Source: a virus (taxonomy: Duplodnaviria > Caudoviricetes). Taken from it: a stretch of 33,432 nucleotides of DNA. Both the position numbers and the translations under genes were made by a program. The stretch is from positions 1-33,432 of IMG/VR virus record IMGVR_UViG_3300025575_000034. One strand, 5' to 3'. A model generated the notes under the pieces. The model had not been told where the DNA came from. It ran no database searches and saw nothing but the letters and a program-made list of their open reading frames with translations. Below are positions 927 to 22,769 of the stretch, piece by piece. Position 1 is the first letter of the stretch; each line of letters starts with the position of its first letter.

Positions 927-1313
927 ATGATGAAAGCTAACATAGGATTTTTACAAGAACGCCAACCGGACGGAACAGTTGCCGATAGTATGACAAGATT
1001 ATCTATGCCGTTCTTTTTTGTATTGCTTTGCTTGTACATGTACTTTTCAAACCAATCTTATGAAAATCACTTTAATAAGCTAGTAGAAATGGCATCAGCT
1101 AAACCGGCAGCGATAATAAGCGAACAGAGTTTTATTGCATTGAATCAGGGGCTAAAAAGATTTGACGAAACCATATTGTTAATACTCTCTTGCTTAGTTG
1201 TTGCCCCTAAGGTAGTGCAAAAAATATTTGAAGCTAAAACCGGAATAAAAGACAGTTCAGAAGTGACCGAAACGACAACAAAAACAGAAAAATCAATAAC
1301 ACAACCATCATGA
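927..1313 (+). CDS. Putative holin / membrane protein
   Basis: Two hydrophobic segments (PFFFVLLCLYMYF; ILLILSCLVVAP), charged C-terminus, position between endolysin and spanin-like gene. Confidence 0.55.
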   Translation: MMKANIGFLQERQPDGTVADSMTRLSMPFFFVLLCLYMYFSNQSYENHFNKLVEMASAKPAAIISEQSFIALNQGLKRFDETILLILSCLVVAPKVVQKIFEAKTGIKDSSEVTETTTKTEKSITQPS

Positions 1314-1786
1314 ATAAATATCTAAAGTATGCCATTTACGCGATATTCGCAGGAATGTTAATTGCTTTAATAATTTCCTGTAAGTCGGTTAAAGAAATCC
1401 CGATACAATACCGAGAGGTAATTAAAGAAAAACTAATACCGGTTATTAATCCTGCCGATAGCGCAAATTTAACGGCATTATTCGAATGTGATAGTACAAA
1501 CCATGTAATATTAAAACAGCTTAAAGAGGCTAAAACCGCACATGTTGAGAGTAGCTCAAATCTGAATAACGGCGTATTTACGTATAAAATCAAAACAGTT
1601 AGAGACACTATTTACATCCCATCAAAAGAAACAACGATTACAAAAGAGGTTCCGGTAAAAGTTGAGGTTCCGGTTAATTACGTGAATTGGTGGCAGAAAA
1701 TACTCATTTGGATTGGTGGCGTTGTGTTAGTTGGCACGATTGGATTTATTGCTTTTAAAATATTTAGATCGAAAATACCGATTTGA
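1310..1786 (+). CDS. Putative unimolecular spanin (lipoprotein with C-terminal TM helix)
   Basis: Signal peptide ending in lipobox LIISC plus C-terminal TM WWQKILIWIGGVVLVGTIGFIAF; last gene of lysis cassette. Confidence 0.65.
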   Translation: MNKYLKYAIYAIFAGMLIALIISCKSVKEIPIQYREVIKEKLIPVINPADSANLTALFECDSTNHVILKQLKEAKTAHVESSSNLNNGVFTYKIKTVRDTIYIPSKETTITKEVPVKVEVPVNYVNWWQKILIWIGGVVLVGTIGFIAFKIFRSKIPI

Positions 1787-1799
1787 TGAAATAAATATC

Positions 1800-1807
1800 T
1801 ATATTTG
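1800..1807 (+). promoter_or_regulatory. Bacteroidota-type -7 promoter element (TATATTTG) for candidate sRNA
   Basis: Exact TAnnTTTG match; no canonically spaced -33 element seen. Confidence 0.5.
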
Positions 1808-1810
1808 AAA

Positions 1811-1876
1811 ATCGTTTTTAGAAGTTTGGTTAGTTTGAAATTTGCGCCTGTGATCGCCCGATTACAGGCGTTTTTT
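1811..1876 (+). ncRNA. Candidate trans-acting sRNA with 5' seed AUCGUUUUUA
   Basis: Promoter element, ~33-nt U/G-rich unpaired stretch with no ORF, then intrinsic terminator; 5' end is the reverse complement of the TAAAAACGAT motif upstream of many start codons. Confidence 0.55.
1844..1876 (+). terminator. Rho-independent terminator
   Basis: GCGCCTGTGATC-gccc-GATTACAGGCGT 12-bp stem followed by a T-run. Confidence 0.85.
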
Positions 1877-3949: not shown

Positions 3950-4024
3950 GATCGTGTAGCTTAATCGGAATAAGAGCGGTGAGTTTCTAAGCCACAGATT
4001 CAGGTTCGAATCCTGACACGAGAG
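3950..4024 (+). tRNA. Degenerate tRNA-Arg(TCT)-like gene
   Basis: D-stem GCTT/GAGC, loop TT-TCT-AA, T-arm TCAGG-TTCGAAT-CCTGA; two mismatches in acceptor stem and two in anticodon stem; CCA not encoded. Confidence 0.55.
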
Positions 4025-4180
4025 CTATTTGAGGTGTAGTTAACCTCCGATAATTATATGTCACTTGATCCGGTTTTCTCAGATGCCACCAAACATTAAC
4101 GGATCGCACTTTTGTTACATGCCTCCGGTCATACAGGAATTTGATCGGAGGCAGTCAGAAACTTTAAAAACGATATTGAG

Positions 4181-4578: not shown

Positions 4579-4603
4579 AAGTACAATTTAAAAACGATAC
4601 GCA

Positions 4604-4774: not shown

Positions 4775-4959
4775 AATACTCACGCTATGATTACGACAGT
4801 CCAGACGGAATGTATGAACCAGATTACGAACCATCACAGGCAGACATTGACGCCGAAAAGTGCGATAATGACGAAGATTCAGAATAAATAAACAATTAAA
4901 AGATACGGAGTTGACGATTAATTTTGTATCTTTGATTACGCTTTAAAAACGATAAGACA

Positions 4960-7808: not shown

Positions 7809-8152
7809 CATGAATAAAAAGCAACGTATATTTTTCGGAATTTCGTTTTTGGCATTTGTATTTTCTTATTTTTATTATAAAGAATTCCGAATCGAAACAT
7901 GCCTTTACGTATCAACTCTTTTATTATTTTTGATTACTCATAAAATTTACGAAAAATAAACAAAATGAAAAAATTACTTTTATTCCTGTTTTTACTCTCG
8001 ATTTTAGCCTCGTGTGTGACGGTTAAAAGATCACATTCAAAAACTATGTACGCTAAAAGAGCGGCGTTTATTAAGTCACGCGGGGAGCCACGAAATGAAT
8101 TTTTTGATCGGAAATGTCCGAATGTGTTTAGATAATTACTATATTTACACCT

Positions 8153-8400
8153 AATAGTGTTCGTTGAAGTTATTAGTAAATTTCGTTTGGACCCGGGTTC
8201 GACTCCCGGCAGCTCCACAGTTTCTAAACGTTCATTAATTGTGAAAGTTAGGCAGTCATCAGCTTGCAATAATGGTGACTGTAAACCTTAAAAGGGGTTG
8301 ACCGGTATTGACAGCGAAGGAATAGAATAATGGAGAGCATTACAGCCAATAACAGGCAAAACAATTGAAATGAAGATGGCGGCTTAGAGCTGTACTGATT
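8153..8400 (+). ncRNA. ssrA: Circularly permuted (two-piece) tmRNA
   Basis: Acceptor piece (T-arm CCGGG-TTCGACT-CCCGG, CAGCTCC-A at 8210-8217) lies upstream of coding piece (GGGGTTG-ACCGGTATTGAC at 8294); G3:U70 pair; three inter-piece helices; tag ORF 8355-8387 GKTIEMKMAA*; outer ends approximate. Confidence 0.88.
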
Positions 8401-8576
8401 CAAAAATTCAGGTGACCGGATACTGACATTAAGTTGGGCGTGAAAATCGGTTAACGGCTACATCGTACGGCCTGAATTTATTTTTAAAATCGCTTTGAAT
8501 TGTCAAATTAATTGATTATAATTGCAGAATAAACCGGATGAAATAAACCGGTTTTAATTACCTTAAAAATTTAACA

Positions 8577-8723
8577 ATGTTGAAAGAAATAAGACAGGAC
8601 ATTTACACGCAGGCCGAATATGCAAAACTCATGGGTAAAACCAGATCATGGGTAAACCAAAAAATCAAAGCCGGTGAATTAAAAACCCTTACAATTAAGG
8701 GTGCAACGCTTGTAAAAGCATAA
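8577..8723 (+). CDS. Small HTH DNA-binding protein (48 aa, not in ORF track)
   Basis: YTQAEYAKLMGKTRSWVNQKIKAGEL, an excisionase/Cro-like HTH pattern. Confidence 0.75.
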   Translation: MLKEIRQDIYTQAEYAKLMGKTRSWVNQKIKAGELKTLTIKGATLVKA

Positions 8724-12200: not shown

Positions 12201-12524
12201 CCGACAATCTTAAAACCAAAATCGAAAACAGGGAAACAGAGATTCAAAGAGCTTACGATAATACAAGATTCAGGCTAATTGAATTAAATCAAATGCAAGT
12301 CGAAATCGTGCAAAAGATTAAAGATCAGGAGCGAATTATGGGAATACTAAAACGGCGAGCATCGCAACAGGGGATATTGCATATTTTATAAATATACGCA
12401 GTATTATTTAATAATTTTTTGTATATTTGTACTGCTTTCGGGGGAGAGCGTAAAGATATTTTAACAGCCGTCACATTGCGAGAACTCCCCCGTCTCAATT
12501 TGTGGCGGTTTTTAATTTTAAATC

Positions 12525-13067: not shown

Positions 13068-13438
13068 GTCCATAATTAAATACTAAAAACGATGACAACA
13101 TTTACAAGGGATTCAAAAACAAACGAAATTAAGTTTTACAGAAACAGCGAACGGGTATTTGATTTTACCATATCCGGCAATGTTGTAAGATTTGAAAATG
13201 GTGATTTTATTTTAATTTAAGATTAAAGACAATGAAAAAATTAAAAGTTTACGAAGTTGAAATGTCAGAACTTGAAAATATGATGTTTTCAAAATATGTC
13301 AGCAATAATAATATTGCGATGAATACGCTGGCAAAAGCCGAAAGGACCAAGCTAACTCAGGAGTGGATGGATAATAACATTACGTTAACGAAATCAATTT
13401 CATAAACAAATTAAAAACCTATTGGTAAATTTAAAATT

Positions 13439-15568: not shown

Positions 15569-15601
15569 CAGTGTCAAAAGGATACACTAAAAAACGATAA
15601 G

Positions 15602-17537
15602 ATGAAAACTTTAGAAATCACTTTAAAGAACGGTAAAATTTACATAGGTTCATCAAACGGTAAAATATATGGAGGTAAAGTATATTTAAACAGACCAGAG
15701 GGCGGTTTTATTAAAGTTACAGAAAATGGTGAATCATTTGAAAGTAGCCGTAAAGATATGATCATTGAAACATCAGAAATAAAATCAGCAAAAGTAATTT
15801 AACAACCAGCTGCACCGACAGTACAAACGGTTATTTTTAAACTTTAAAACGATAAGGAAATGAATAACGGCAGAATTAACGAACGAAATACAGGTGATTG
15901 GTCAATAGATAGCGAACCTAAAAAAAGAACAAAGATTTTCACTGCGTCTATTAAATTAACACAATCAGAAATAGACTTGATGAAATACATATTACGTCAG
16001 GTGGCAAAATGTGTTAAGTTATCCGAAATTGACGGCAAACAATTTTTTACCGACAATAGCGATTTTATTTGTCAATTCGAACGTGAAAGAATTGAGGATT
16101 TATGGAGCATTCAAAATAAATTAAGCAAATGACCGAACGAAAACAAACAGAACGCCAACTACTGATTAAGTTCGTTAAATTCCTGAATAAAGAAAGGGTT
16201 TGCGGATGTGTTCAGTTAATACCCGCCTCGATTGTAACATCATTTTACTGGGCCAAACTTGAAGCTGATTTAAGGAAAATAAATAAAAACGATTTAAACG
16301 AAGGATTAAAATTTTAACCGATGGAAACGAAAAGAATGACGCATCACATGTGCATGAGCATCGACGGATGTTTGCGAAATCACGAAGGACGCAAAATCAA
16401 AATATTCGACGATGAAAACGGTGATCAAACATCAGACAAAGAAGCAAGAGAATATCTTGCAGAATGTCAGGCAAAAGGATGGAAAGTAATTCCAATGGGC
16501 GAACCGTGCGAAGGATTTGATTATTTTGGACACGGATGCCCGGGGCATGAAGTAAAAGAAATAACATTAGCAGATCAAAATTAAACTCAAACAAAATGAG
16601 CAAAACAACATTTTTTGAACTTGATGGGAAACAATTTAAAGTCGAGCTGATTGAGGCAAAGAAATCAATGTCCACAAAAGAACAAATGGATTTTTACAAT
16701 TCAAAATGTAAATCTAAACCAGTTTTGGATTTTAATAATCGTCAATTTACAGGGTGGATTGAAACGTATAATTTAAAATTTGAATGGCAAAACTATCTAA
16801 TCAGCGAAGCCAGAAAGCGCGGTTTTATTTCCGGTTGCACGATCAAGACAGCTACCGACATGGACAAAATGAAATCCGGCAGATTGCAGTTAATTGGGCT
16901 GTCAAAACTTGCAACAGACGGCAGAAAGTCAATCATTATTTATGATAACGGCAAATGGTGTGCCGAAGCGATACCAGAAGTTAAAAAGCATTTTTGGACA
17001 AATAATAGCATGTTAAGTACGAAAAATTGGGAGAAATATAATTCTTTGACTGATGACGAAATGGAAAAGATTAAATGCGATCCGGAAAAGTACGACATTA
17101 AAGAGATTGAACATATCATAATTGATTTATCACTTAAGATTAATCACTCTAATTTATATGTCACTATTAGAAATGAAGAGGCAAAATTAATCCGTGAAAT
17201 ATTAAACGATTATTTGAAATAAAAAGCTATGTTTTTAGATGACCAACTTTATCAGATTACAAAAGCAACTCAAATAAGTTGCCCGAATGATTTTAATCAG
17301 ATGATAAATTCACTTTATCAAACGTGTGAGAATAAATGGAAACCTGAATTTGATATTTCAAGATCAGGAAAAGAGGCAAAAATATTACTTGACCGCACAT
17401 TTAACGCATGGGATAGTTTCATAAAGAAACTTGAAAAAGAAAATTATTACCTTGCCGATATGGTGAAAAAGTATTCTTACAAATATGCCTTTATGGCAAA
17501 TGAAAAACTAAAAGAAGCCTACGAAAAATTAGGATAA
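15602..17537 (+). other. Cluster of small hypothetical early genes (15602-15802, 15860-16132, 16129-16317, 16321-16584, 16596-17222, 17229-17537)
   Basis: Tightly packed co-directional ORFs downstream of promoter copy 4; no recognised families. Confidence 0.7.
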
Positions 17538-17721
17538 TTAACTGAAATTAAGTAACTTTAAAGCAAATTAAACAAATGGAAATTAACATCGAAGAGGCAA
17601 AATATATTTTATGCGCATTTGAAAACCAGGAAAATCAAGATGGGTTTTTAAATTCAGTAGAACAGAATATTTGCAATAGGATCAAAGAAGAATTTAACCT
17701 TTAAAATAAATTAAAAACGAG

Positions 17722-17931
17722 ATGAAATACAAAGAACAAATCTACGAATTAACTCAGGCTATCGAAAAGAAAGTAAAAGCCGACATTTAGGCGAAATTAG
17801 ACACGCAATGTGCAGAGGTATTACAACAGCATACCCGATTCTTTAAGTTTAAATGCTGGCTTGTCTGGGGTCATTTATATCGGGATGGTGTTTGCCTTCG
17901 TTGTGGCAAGTTAGAAACAATTAAAAAGTAA
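17722..17931 (+). pseudogene. 69-codon ORF interrupted by an in-frame TAG
   Basis: MKYKEQ...KADI*AKLDTQ...CWLVWGHLYRDGVCLRCGK; TAG at 17788-17790; start-region motif upstream. Confidence 0.55.
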
Positions 17932-18554: not shown

Positions 18555-18597
18555 CATCATGAAACAGCAAGGAAGCTGAATCACTAAAAACGACGCG

Positions 18598-21070
18598 ATG
18601 ATGAATACAAAAAAATTAGGACAAGAACCAGCTCTTCCGTATACATTTACGGAATATAGAAGCGGACAGCCATTTATAAAAGTTCAACAAGGTCTATCTA
18701 AGCGTCTTTTAATCGCAAAAGATATGATGCAGGTTGCGAATACTTTTTTTAATGACTGTTCAGTTAAATTCATATCGGAATATATTGGAATTACAGAAAG
18801 CGAATATACGTATGATCACTACAAAAAGGCAGTAGTTAAATATGCAATTGAATTGGCAGATGAACTCTTAAAACAGGAAGCATTTGACCTACATTAAAAA
18901 CGATAATATGATACAAGAAATTCAATTTTTAGGATGTGAACATTTGGATTACTCCGATAATTACAGCGCAAATAAAGAACCAATTTCGACAAGGTTTGGT
19001 ACTAAAATATGTTGGAATAGACCCGTAATTGATTCTACATATCCGAGCTTAGTTCAATTTTGCAAAAAACGTGGAAGGTTAAATAATCCTCAGTCATGTT
19101 TGTGCGAATCAAATAAAATGTGTTCTGACTTTAATGATTTTAATCATACAGTTGCATTTAATGCCGAATAACCATGGCCTACATTAAAGACCCATCAACA
19201 GGCGATACCCTTCATTTAAAACGTGAATCCGGCTTGTATCCGGTAAAAGTTGAAAAGCATCACAAAAACATGATAATGATGCAATACGACAGTTTCAATC
19301 GGCTATTTTGTGAGATTGGCGAAAGCGGAGAGTATTGGAAAGAATGCGATTTGTATTTAATCGGGGATAAAATCAACTTGAATTAATTGATTAAATCATT
19401 TATATTTAGTAATTTAGTATAAAATTAGAAACGATGAAAACAGCAGAAAAAATACTTGACGATTTAGATGAAACTTACTACGTTGAAGAAATTGCAATGG
19501 TTAGTTACTATACAGCAGTAAAGGCTATTGAACACGCACAAAAAGAGGCTCATTTGTCACTTCTACATGATTTAATTAAGATATTAATTGATGTAAGCAA
19601 ACAAATTCCGCCTGAATATTATGATGTTGTAAATAAACATCTTATCAATTTACAAAATACAGCCATAAAACTTACAGAATAATGAAACGAACCATAAAAG
19701 TATTAACAGAAATTTCCTGGTATTTCGAAGCGTTTAAATATACGTTTACATACACTATTTTAGCCTATTGGGCATTTTTAATATTTGCAAAATAAAAACG
19801 AAATGGAACTAACAACAGAAGAAAGAGCCACATTTAACTATTTGATTAGTATCGGCGATACAAAGGATCAAGCATTGGCGACAATATTAAAATCAAGAAA
19901 ATGAAAAAGTTAATCGAAGATTACAAAAAGAAGCTGAATAATTGTAACGAGTTCCTAAATGCGCAATTATCAGATAAAGGTAAGGTAGTAATAATAATAC
20001 GCGAAAGAGCAAATTGTTACCGCAAATTCATTTCAGAACTTGAAATATTGAATAAATGACAACAGAAAGACTAATCGACAAAGTAACCGTTACAAATTTA
20101 GATATTGCATTGAGAATGTGCAATATTCAGATTCACAAATCAATAGTTGATAAAATCATTGATTTAGTCGAATTAATTGAAGATAAAGGTGATGATATAA
20201 GTATTAAAGACATTTGCGAATTACAGGGAAGTTGGGAAAATGGAACATTAAAACATGAATAATGACACCGACAAAATCATTCATAGAAATTTCCCCATCG
20301 AAAGACAAAAAGTTCTGCCAAAACTGCAAACACTTTGATAAGTGGGGAGTTCATGCCGGAATTTGTTGTGTAGATAACAAAGGATATAATAAAATGGATT
20401 GGCAAACATGCAAAAAATTTGAAAAGAAATGACAACAGAAACAGCTATTCACATTCTGGAACTTTACAACAAGTGGCGAAGAGGCTTAGAAACGGAAATG
20501 TTAGACCCGAAACAGTTGGGATTGGCTATTGATTTGGCGATTGAGACATTAAAACAATCGAAACAAAGCAAAAAAGAAATTGCGGCATTAAAGAGTCAGG
20601 TTTATAATCTGAATGTTAGGTTAAGTGATATAAAAGACAATAGTTGTAAATTTTGAACCATGCAAATTTGCCCTGACTGCATAGAGCCATTAATACCAGA
20701 CTGCAAGAAACTTGCAATGTGTAATCATTGGATGATTTGCCCGAAATGCGGACACAGAGAACGACCGGATAAGGATGTAATTGATTGTCGGAAAGTAGGG
20801 TTGTTTATTGATCGGATCAGGAAAAGTAATAGGAATGAAAACCAATTTAATAAAGATTGAAAAATGAAGGAAATTAAGGATTTTATTGAAAGATTAAAGA
20901 CGGAACGAAATGAATTAAATCAAAAGCTTAAATTCGTACGAGAGCACAAATTTACAAAAGAGGAACAATTCTTATCTGATCAAGTGAGTGTAATTAACTC
21001 AATAATGTATGAATTAGAATTAGTTTGCGATGGTAAGCAAAAAGGGAACGATTCAAAATTTATGTTTTAA
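18598..21070 (+). other. Cluster of small hypothetical early genes (incl. 18598-18897, Cys-rich 18908-19171, 19174-19386, 19434-19682, 19901-20059, 20056-20262, 20429-20656, zinc-ribbon 20660-20860, 20864-21070)
   Basis: Tightly packed co-directional ORFs downstream of promoter copy 5; CPDC...CPKC in 20660-20860. Confidence 0.7.
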
Positions 21071-21116
21071 TTTTGATATTTGAAAAAATAAGAGTAAGTT
21101 TGATAAAAAGAATTAA

Positions 21117-21221
21117 GATTGTGTGGCGGAATTGGCAGACGCAAACGTAGAAGCGACGGGATGAATGTCAAATAGGCCCGTAACGTATGACAGATTTCAG
21201 GTTCGAATCCTGACACAATCA
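21117..21221 (+). ncRNA. tRNA-like RNA (105 nt) with non-canonical enlarged anticodon region
   Basis: Perfect acceptor stem GATTGTG/CACAATC, D-arm TGGCGGAATTGGCAGACGC, T-arm TCAGG-TTCGAAT-CCTGA; no normal 5-bp/7-nt anticodon arm; TAAGTTTG promoter element at 21095. Confidence 0.7.
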
Positions 21222-21334: not shown

Positions 21335-21407
21335 GCCGGAATAACTCAGATGGTAGAGTGTCTGTTTTGTACTCAGAATGTCACGGGTTCGATTCCTGTT
21401 TCCGGCT
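21335..21407 (+). tRNA. tRNA-Thr(TGT)
   Basis: Acceptor GCCGGAA/TTCCGGC, D-stem ACTC/GAGT, loop TT-TGT-AC (one T-T mismatch closing the stem), T-arm ACGGG-TTCGATT-CCTGT. Confidence 0.88.
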
Positions 21408-21435
21408 CAAAAGTAATAGATTGAAAATAATCACT

Positions 21436-22585: not shown

Positions 22586-22769
22586 AGAAGACTTCGAACA
22601 GGCGATAGAATCACTTCGCTTGCTGATTAAGGGTATTCCCATCAAAGATGATGAGGGTACTCTTATTGGTTTTATCGAAAAACCGGATATGAACGCGATT
22701 AAATATGTATTGAGCAAGCAACGGACGGCAACGGACGGCAACGGACGGCAACGGACATGCTCCTATTAA
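22554..22769 (+). CDS. Small hypothetical protein upstream of terS
   Basis: 71-aa ORF whose 3' end is formed by the 10-bp tandem repeat. Confidence 0.55.
   Translation: MSDLSSKNLNEEDFEQAIESLRLLIKGIPIKDDEGTLIGFIEKPDMNAIKYVLSKQRTATDGNGRQRTCSY
22718..22756. repeat. Tandem repeat (GCAACGGACG) x3.9
   Basis: Perfect GC-rich 10-mer repeats in an AT-rich genome. Confidence 0.95.

Follow-up and report, generated by a model that had tools for sequence, protein, structure and literature searches.

Sequence comparison indicates that positions 1800-1876 of the phage DNA studied here hold a real, conserved element composed of a promoter, a seed and a terminator. The prediction that this element specifies a small RNA (sRNA) acting in trans, by pairing with a tag shared among early-gene leaders, is well supported by a rank test, shuffled controls, conservation of the seed under changing context, and the co-occurrence of seed and tag across phages. 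The anatomy of the unit, its complementarity to the tag, the statistical excess of that complementarity, its conservation and the placing of tags at early-gene starts are plain observations. We put it at somewhat better than an even chance that the unit encodes a FopS/GibS-like small RNA directed at early leaders of the phage itself, where its likely effect is to dampen or stop early translation.

The window, which is a whole virus record of 33,432 bases, is a fragment of an uncultured tailed phage. It begins at the end of a lysis block (endolysin at 11-208), continues through an early region from 1983 to ~22,600 that contains methyltransferases, recombination and replication genes and many small ORFs, and then enters terminase, portal and capsid genes. 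A Bacteroidota host is indicated by the TAnnTTTG promoters and by leaders that are A-rich and lack Shine-Dalgarno (SD) sequences. The last gene of the lysis block (1310-1786, plus strand, 158 aa) has no PHROG or Pfam match, and its position after the endolysin and a holin-like gene suggests a spanin-like product. In relatives it is swapped for a largely non-homologous gene of 218-219 aa.

The unit opens with TATATTTG (1800-1807, plus strand), a sigmaABfr-type -7 promoter element matching TAHHTTTG, the consensus given in the available part of PMC6847099, of which only 23 copies occur in the 33 kb of plus strand. The seed ATCGTTTTTA (1811-1820, plus strand) forms the predicted 5' end of the RNA and is predicted to be single-stranded, its first ten bases having a mean predicted unpaired probability of 0.92. 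It is followed by a U/G-rich linker (1821-1843, plus strand), variable but for a recurrent TTAG word, which contains GTTAGTTT at 1829-1836 and may extend the pairing. An intrinsic terminator closes the unit (1844-1876, plus strand), with a 12-pair hairpin at 1844-1871 and a U-tract reaching 1876; this U-tract lies on the plus strand only, and the 3' end is common to the lysis block. The segment 1811-1880 folds in its terminator part only (z = -4.0, none of 200 shuffles being as stable). No -33 TTTG was found at consensus spacing from the window unit, and its promoter lacks the AAACATGTT box that marks early promoters (see below).

A preliminary description of this DNA had named the -7 element at 1800 and the strong terminator, and both are borne out. 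It placed the transcript start near 1811, which needs a small shift, as the published spacing of 4-5 nt favours a predicted +1 that is probably 1812-1813 rather than 1811. A 9-mer beginning at 1812 has its mirror image at six starts, and with it the variants at 17712, 18585 and 19793, which differ in the last base, would be tolerated. The description also saw no ORF, which is literally incorrect because a TTG-started frame of 34 codons (1805-1909) spans the unit, but holds in substance since the same frame is only 5-9 codons long in five relatives. Rfam gave nothing at gathering score for the 1800-1876 locus. The best weak match, the trpB motif (36.7 bits against a cut-off of 59), was rejected, as it covers mainly the terminator and the motif requires an upstream hairpin spanning a stop codon. 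A search of the annotated phage collection returned short YopX-type matches only, none of them to the unit.

The tag TAAAAACGAT is the exact complement of the seed, as had been described for the 5' bases of the transcript and the early-leader motif. It occurs in six exact copies on the plus strand and one on the minus strand, the latter being the seed itself. Five of the six plus-strand copies lie -2 to 6 nt from an ATG, and the sixth (16284) is 27 nt upstream of one. Start windows were taken as -22 to +3 of ORFs of at least 40 aa, with start calls made in this analysis; among the 73 so defined, 5 contain the exact tag and 11 a tag within one mismatch, the latter divided between 10 of 52 early starts and 1 of 21 late or other starts.

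All tag sites are on the plus strand. The exact tags are found at 4165-4174 (6 nt before ATG 4181, 114 aa), 4589-4598 (5 nt before ATG 4604), 4944-4953 (6 nt before ATG 4960, which begins a Rad52/22-like protein with a weak Pfam match, E 8.7e-5), 13084-13093 (overlapping ATG 13092) and 18895-18904 (3 nt before ATG 18908), those at 4589 and 13084 belonging to the first gene after a boxed promoter. Tags with one mismatch occur at 2555-2564 (overlapping ATG 2563), 15589-15598 (before ATG 15602, again the first gene after a boxed promoter), 15844-15853 (before ATG 15860) and 18585-18594 (before ATG 18598, behind a boxed promoter), where the mismatch is in the last base and pairing would be complete if the RNA starts at 1812. 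Further such tags precede a 33-aa ORF at 19803 (19793-19802) and a candidate 22-aa ORF at 17722 (17712-17721). The G:U-compatible variant TAGAAACGAT at 19426-19435, overlapping ATG 19434, and the pairing at the first site that reaches 4159 with one bulge are both as previously described. The figure of about 13 target genes given in that account is reached only with one mismatch allowed, by adding the 33-aa and 22-aa ORFs to the 11 of 73 starts; exact tags mark five.

When start-window tag sites from several genomes are pooled, 43 of 43 lie -2 to 7 nt from the ATG. The distance from tag to promoter ranges over 9-29 nt, so that leader length varies while the tag stays near the ATG. The genes behind the tags are non-homologous, and include the Rad52-like gene in the window, those for an AAA_24 protein and a SNF2-methylase in relative G001, and a PD-(D/E)XK-like gene in G002. 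Predicted duplexes over 26 nt are weak, with energies of -8.5 to -16.9 kcal/mol that leave out the cost of opening, and a number of tag sites are predicted to be half-occluded; because the duplexes are modest, a chaperone such as RbpB, which FopS/GibS RNAs bind, may be needed.

This complementarity is far in excess of chance. The preliminary description had proposed weighing the pairing against shuffled controls, and shuffled start regions gave expectations of 0.03 exact and 0.64 near tags against the 5 and 11 observed, with a maximum of 3 in 100 shuffles. Duplex energies as good as those of the real seed were obtained with shuffled seeds in 0 of 300 and 1 of 150 trials. Among the 33,422 10-mers of the plus strand, only that at 1811 mirrors five start regions, and when both strands are scored with masking of the start regions, a count of five is attained at 3 of 58,310 positions. 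The corresponding counts are 1 of 46,766 10-mers in G004 and 2 of 48,474 (the same word) in G001. A compositional bias pairing U-rich tracts with A-rich leaders is an unlikely cause here, given the CG in the core of the seed, the rank result and the joint occurrence of seed and tag. A second pairing segment suggested in the preliminary description (AAACTAAC before 18332) is not supported, being a single site in 73 starts; AACTAA is as common in the start regions of phages lacking the unit (8/92, 6/83 and 11/80).

Two DNA runs covering the 1800-1876 region show mosaic relatives. The related phages G001-G004 (46-52 kb, 93-100% complete) have homologues of 19-30 window proteins, and in each of them, as in fragment L313, a TAHHTTTG element, a gap of 3-4 nt, an identical seed, a U/G-rich linker and a terminator stand directly behind the last lysis gene. 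There is one promoter-seed-terminator unit per genome in G000-G004. The promoter, the 3-4 nt gap and the identical seed are present in all seven tabulated records (six distinct sequences), in line with the seed conservation that had been proposed as a check. Around this constant seed the upstream gene, the spacer, the middle bases of the promoter and the hairpin all change in relatives; in the -7 element TA and TTTG are fixed, and the middle bases and flanks differ. One relative has a G-U to A-U change at 1852 in the terminator stem, and others use a different hairpin with one compensatory pair. As the genomes are mosaic and their leaders shared by descent, family members are not independent samples. 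An unrelated group (G005/G040-G043, with one weak shared protein) has the same promoter, seed and terminator, located before terminase genes and not behind lysis genes. In one member of this group, G042, the seed unit stands back to back with an opposite-strand promoter, U-rich tract and hairpin (9249 and 9274).

Beyond the core, the sequence next to the seed appears to vary together with the leaders. In the G005 group the seed is followed by GUU, and both exact-tag leaders of G042 carry AAC, giving perfect matches of 13 nt. In G002 and G004 the seed is followed by AAGU and leaders carry ACTT, giving matches of up to 14 nt. This co-variation of the extension is suggestive, with few sites overall, the G005-group part coming from two sites in one group. 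The core seed is invariant wherever it was found, and no lineage was found with a changed core and a matching changed tag. No clear signal for own targets came from the candidates with a variant seed (L305, G198, G199 and G017, the sequences of L305 and G198 being short fragments), and an own-target test of a segment of G200 gave p = 0.36. The L305 candidate (2565-2650) is a syntenic unit behind lysis genes whose 5' end differs and contains an anti-AUG, which brings it nearer to the FopS design; no matching leaders were found within its 10-kb fragment. In G199 (L328, 3733-3800), a promoter-less U/G-rich tract and terminator with a weak own-leader match come right after the last lysis gene, and are followed by the same box and an early promoter.

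Across phages, the tag and the unit tend to occur together. Start windows are enriched in it in G000-G004, L313 and G042 (0/100 shuffles each) and in G005 (3/100), and are not enriched in G017, G020, G022, G029, G044, G034-G036 and G046, in which a promoter-terminator screen found no such unit. The correspondence is imperfect. G047 (5 near tags) and G024 (3) are enriched although no unit was detected there; G003 has the seed with 0 exact 10-mer tags and 8 near matches (energy test p = 0.07); and the fragments G041 and G043 have the unit with 0 tags in the sequence covered. In 41 host-like genomes, all from the taxonomic order of an Ancylomarina genome, there were 201 tag+ATG matches (~1.3 per Mb, 0-12 each), against 114 for a reversed control. 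The window, with 4 tag+ATG sites in 33 kb, is ~90-fold denser, and because the density in host-like genomes is so much lower, the tag is not a generic Bacteroidota leader.

No chromosomal copy of the unit with promoter, seed and terminator was found among 52 genome matches, and of 21 promoter+seed matches in 151 genomes two had a distant hairpin at 82 nt and none was compact. A viral promoter+seed scan covering 53 of 64 parts gave at least 76 distinct matches, and among the matches listed seven had a hairpin within 90 nt: three family members, one from the G005 group, one G047 gene-start mirror and two weak cases. A further viral scan gave 8 unrelated matches. A search for the box together with the tag returned 12 loci, made up of family records, two fragments lacking the lysis end (G204 and G206) and three chance matches in coding DNA. 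In A/T-rich genomes such as these, an ordinary gene start read from the opposite strand can look like a promoter, seed and hairpin, and the candidate units of G029 and G047 were rejected as such mirrors. A candidate second code in G044 (5/71 leaders) was also set aside as probably a mirror, since its antisense opens a short ORF between same-strand genes.

The unit has sequence features of a trans-encoded sRNA, being non-coding and having a conserved seed complementary to several start regions beyond chance. FopS (Rfam RF04319) and GibS are sRNAs of Bacteroides thetaiotaomicron (PMC11697453; PMC7366714), and the available text of PMC11697453 reports that FopS blocks translation by pairing at start regions and that a FopS-like sequence is present in one Caudovirales phage. 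As far as these sources extend, both RNAs share with the unit, at the level of sequence, a sigmaABfr promoter, a single-stranded U-rich 5' seed and a terminator hairpin, and both pair with SD-less initiation regions of several mRNAs, as is predicted for the unit. The 5' consensus of FopS (GUGUUUUUCAUAGUAUUAG...), in the same partial text, holds an anti-AUG, and its pairing runs over the start codon into coding sequence, whereas the unit seed, which has a GUUUUU run in common with it, has no CAU and would pair with bases that lie upstream of the AUG or just reach it. The unit is single-copy and FopS multicopy (12-15 per genome), and the predicted targets of the unit are the phage's own early genes, unlike those of FopS and GibS. 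The RF04319 model had no window match at gathering score, was absent from the 11 weak matches for 1770-1900, and had none at E <= 10 at the homologous loci of G001, G002, G003 and G005. The unit is therefore not a FopS member, failing on model score, seed and copy number. The statement in the preliminary description that no described system matches thus needs qualifying: architecture and mode match FopS/GibS, and the seed and own-gene targets set the unit apart.

Other phage regulators offer partial parallels. The CI RNA of phage P4 is a small trans-acting RNA whose action is based on pairing, and T4 RegA is a protein repressor that controls the translation of many early messages together by acting at their start regions. 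The unit would resemble RegA in its control of early-message start regions, its candidate regulator being an RNA with a complementary seed. P1 c4, a processed 77-nt RNA, represses an antirepressor operon in a temperate phage, and is likewise a small phage RNA acting in trans on phage genes by pairing, according to the available portion of PMC8546580. The unit differs from c4 and P4 CI in that a single tag is common to about a dozen dispersed leaders, and nothing points to an immunity circuit. Rfam gave no match that would place it with either RNA; no tyrosine integrase or resolvase was found in any of 5 records (at least 90% complete in 4 cases); and HTH_3 gave a single match, below threshold, among the 5 records, 50 of the 69 G001 proteins having been scanned additionally. 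The phage regulatory RNAs sar, OOP, aQ, STnc6030, sas, PreS and VpdS affect development or superinfection (PMC12197685). Those covered in the available part of that review are either antisense to one phage gene or Hfq-bound and acting largely on host targets, and none is described there as using a shared tag on dispersed own early leaders. A search of the open-access literature found no description of this RNA or its tag.

The early region also has features that suggest control by proteins. Boxes of the form AAACATGTT-N4/5-ARCA lie upstream of early-type promoters on the plus strand at 1883 (1883-1900), 4525, 13013, 15515, 18501, 21436 and 25589. The box is present in all five family genomes, mostly 45-47 nt upstream of the -7 element, and 5 of the 7 window boxes lie 46-51 nt before such an element. 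Many tagged genes are the first gene after a boxed early promoter, and by an eye count over five genomes, in which the sites are homologous and not independent, 19 of 28 boxed promoters have a tag within one mismatch in their first leader. Boxes similar to AAACATGTT precede promoters in other Bacteroidota-type phage records. The preliminary description missed this protein-regulator side, which comprises the conserved box and a Cox-like HTH gene (8577-8723) that immediately precedes the replication initiator and has weak matches in PHROG (E 8.7e-4) and Pfam (E 1.2e-4, below cut-off). A 58-aa basic protein (2390-2566) is a further candidate DNA-binding regulator, and either gene may encode the factor that binds the box. 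It shows 91-98% identity in all four relatives despite the mosaicism; no family was found for it, and an atlas search gave unnamed clusters only.

In the mechanism we propose, the host housekeeping sigma factor and RNA polymerase would make an RNA of ~65 nt from the 1800 promoter, and a late extra supply could arise as the 3' end of the lysis message, which uses the same terminator. The exposed 5' end would pair with TAAAAACGAT in the leaders of some 10-12 early genes of the phage itself. Adenines at -3, -6, -12 and -13 promote initiation in Bacteroidota (in the available text of PMC6847099), and pairing would cover the A-rich stretch from ~-16 to -3 on which the ribosomes of these bacteria presumably rely. 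Translation of the first genes of early operons would then be lowered together, so that early expression would be braked or shut off after a delay in a phage that apparently does not integrate. The earlier proposal that one sRNA controls the early regulon is thus well supported as regards predicted trans pairing with a shared tag. Its suggestion of lysogeny maintenance finds no backing, with no integrase or resolvase in 5/5 records and a single sub-threshold HTH_3 match, and delayed damping or shut-off is likelier for that reason.

The same observations could be read in other ways. The tag may be a site for a protein or the ribosome (a translational enhancer, or an operator bound by a RegA-like phage protein) that spread with the promoter-leader module, its inverted copy being a relic leader before the lysis terminator with no functional RNA. 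The clustering of tags in the repeated box-promoter-leader module (19/28 boxed promoters, by eye) and the tagged G047, which has no unit, agree with such a site, and a relic would be consistent with the 16 nt that the minus strand of the G001 unit shares with the 4589 leader of the window and with the real gene starts that mirror promoter and seed in G047 and G029. A relic should decay, yet two unrelated phage groups have an identical seed amid changing neighbours, with a constant spacing to TAHHTTTG. Judged from the letters, the gene-start-mirror hazard does not apply to the window unit, which has no conserved ATG or ORF downstream on the minus strand and a U-tract facing the plus strand, and we regard this alternative as unlikely. 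It is also rather unlikely that the pairing is as we propose but the lysis message alone supplies the RNA, as its 3' tail in processed or unprocessed form, so that it acts late and the -7 match is incidental. In the window's family the unit is always behind the last lysis gene, on the same strand and with a shared terminator; in G199 a comparable U/G tract and hairpin stand immediately behind the stop codon, with no promoter; FopS-14 is derived from a 3'UTR (available text of PMC11697453); and the window has no -33 TTTG at consensus spacing. This last point loses force as the -33 motif is weak in Flavobacterium (PMC6847099, in the part available), and an incidental match sits poorly with TAHHTTTG being kept at 3-4 nt in all six distinct sequences while its middle bases vary, and with the G005-group unit not being behind lysis genes.

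The RNA may instead be made with its main job directed against other genomes. It would then act on host messages, or on related phages entering the cell, with superinfection exclusion or a carrier state as the result. Superinfection-excluding RNAs are known from phages (STnc6030 and sas; available part of PMC12197685), the seed is common to the mosaic relatives and an unrelated group, and host-like genomes have 0-12 tag+ATG sites each. We consider this improbable, given that tag density is ~90-fold higher in the phage's own leaders than in host-like genomes and that no integrase or resolvase indicates a resident state. Most improbable of all would be that the word is an operator in the DNA close to promoters, with an inverted copy at the +1 of the 1800 promoter. 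Many copies do lie 9-29 nt downstream of a -7 element, but the strand bias is strict (6 of 7 exact copies on the coding strand), spacing follows the ATG and not the promoter, the sites at 2555, 4165, 15844 and 18895 have no nearby promoter, and a separate palindromic box already marks these promoters.

An sRNA acting on the phage's own early leaders could also be part of something broader. It is a tentative and rather doubtful proposal that Bacteroidota phages have an RNA address system, in which strong early promoters stamp a tag on their leaders and one sRNA switches the set off as an early-to-late timer, while also silencing co-infecting phages; the silencing of their early genes would be possible under such a system because unrelated phage lineages share the same seed. 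To our knowledge, early shut-down is poorly understood in phages that lack an integrase or CI-type repressor and whose hosts lack Shine-Dalgarno sequences or Hfq. If confirmed, the unit would specify a FopS-like RNA carried by a phage, with a defined regulon made up of the leaders of several of that phage's genes, and could provide a compact translational off-switch for Bacteroidota genetics.

Several other features are present in the window. The early region contains a permuted (two-piece) tmRNA gene at 8128-8478 (Rfam RF04321, 62.8 bits; ARAGORN tag GKTIEMKMAA), and relatives have DNA similar to it. Genes for tRNA-Arg(TCT) and tRNA-Thr(TGT) are located at 3950-4025 and 21335-21408, and after a promoter at 21095 there is a third tRNA-like sequence (~21118-21220), which has a long arm and was not called by Rfam or by ARAGORN. 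At 12422-12510 a promoter and a structured leader stand directly 5' of an HNH endonuclease gene, and G001 has a similar unit. A short tandem repeat with a 9-base unit (22725-22758) occupies the end of the ORF preceding the terminase small subunit.
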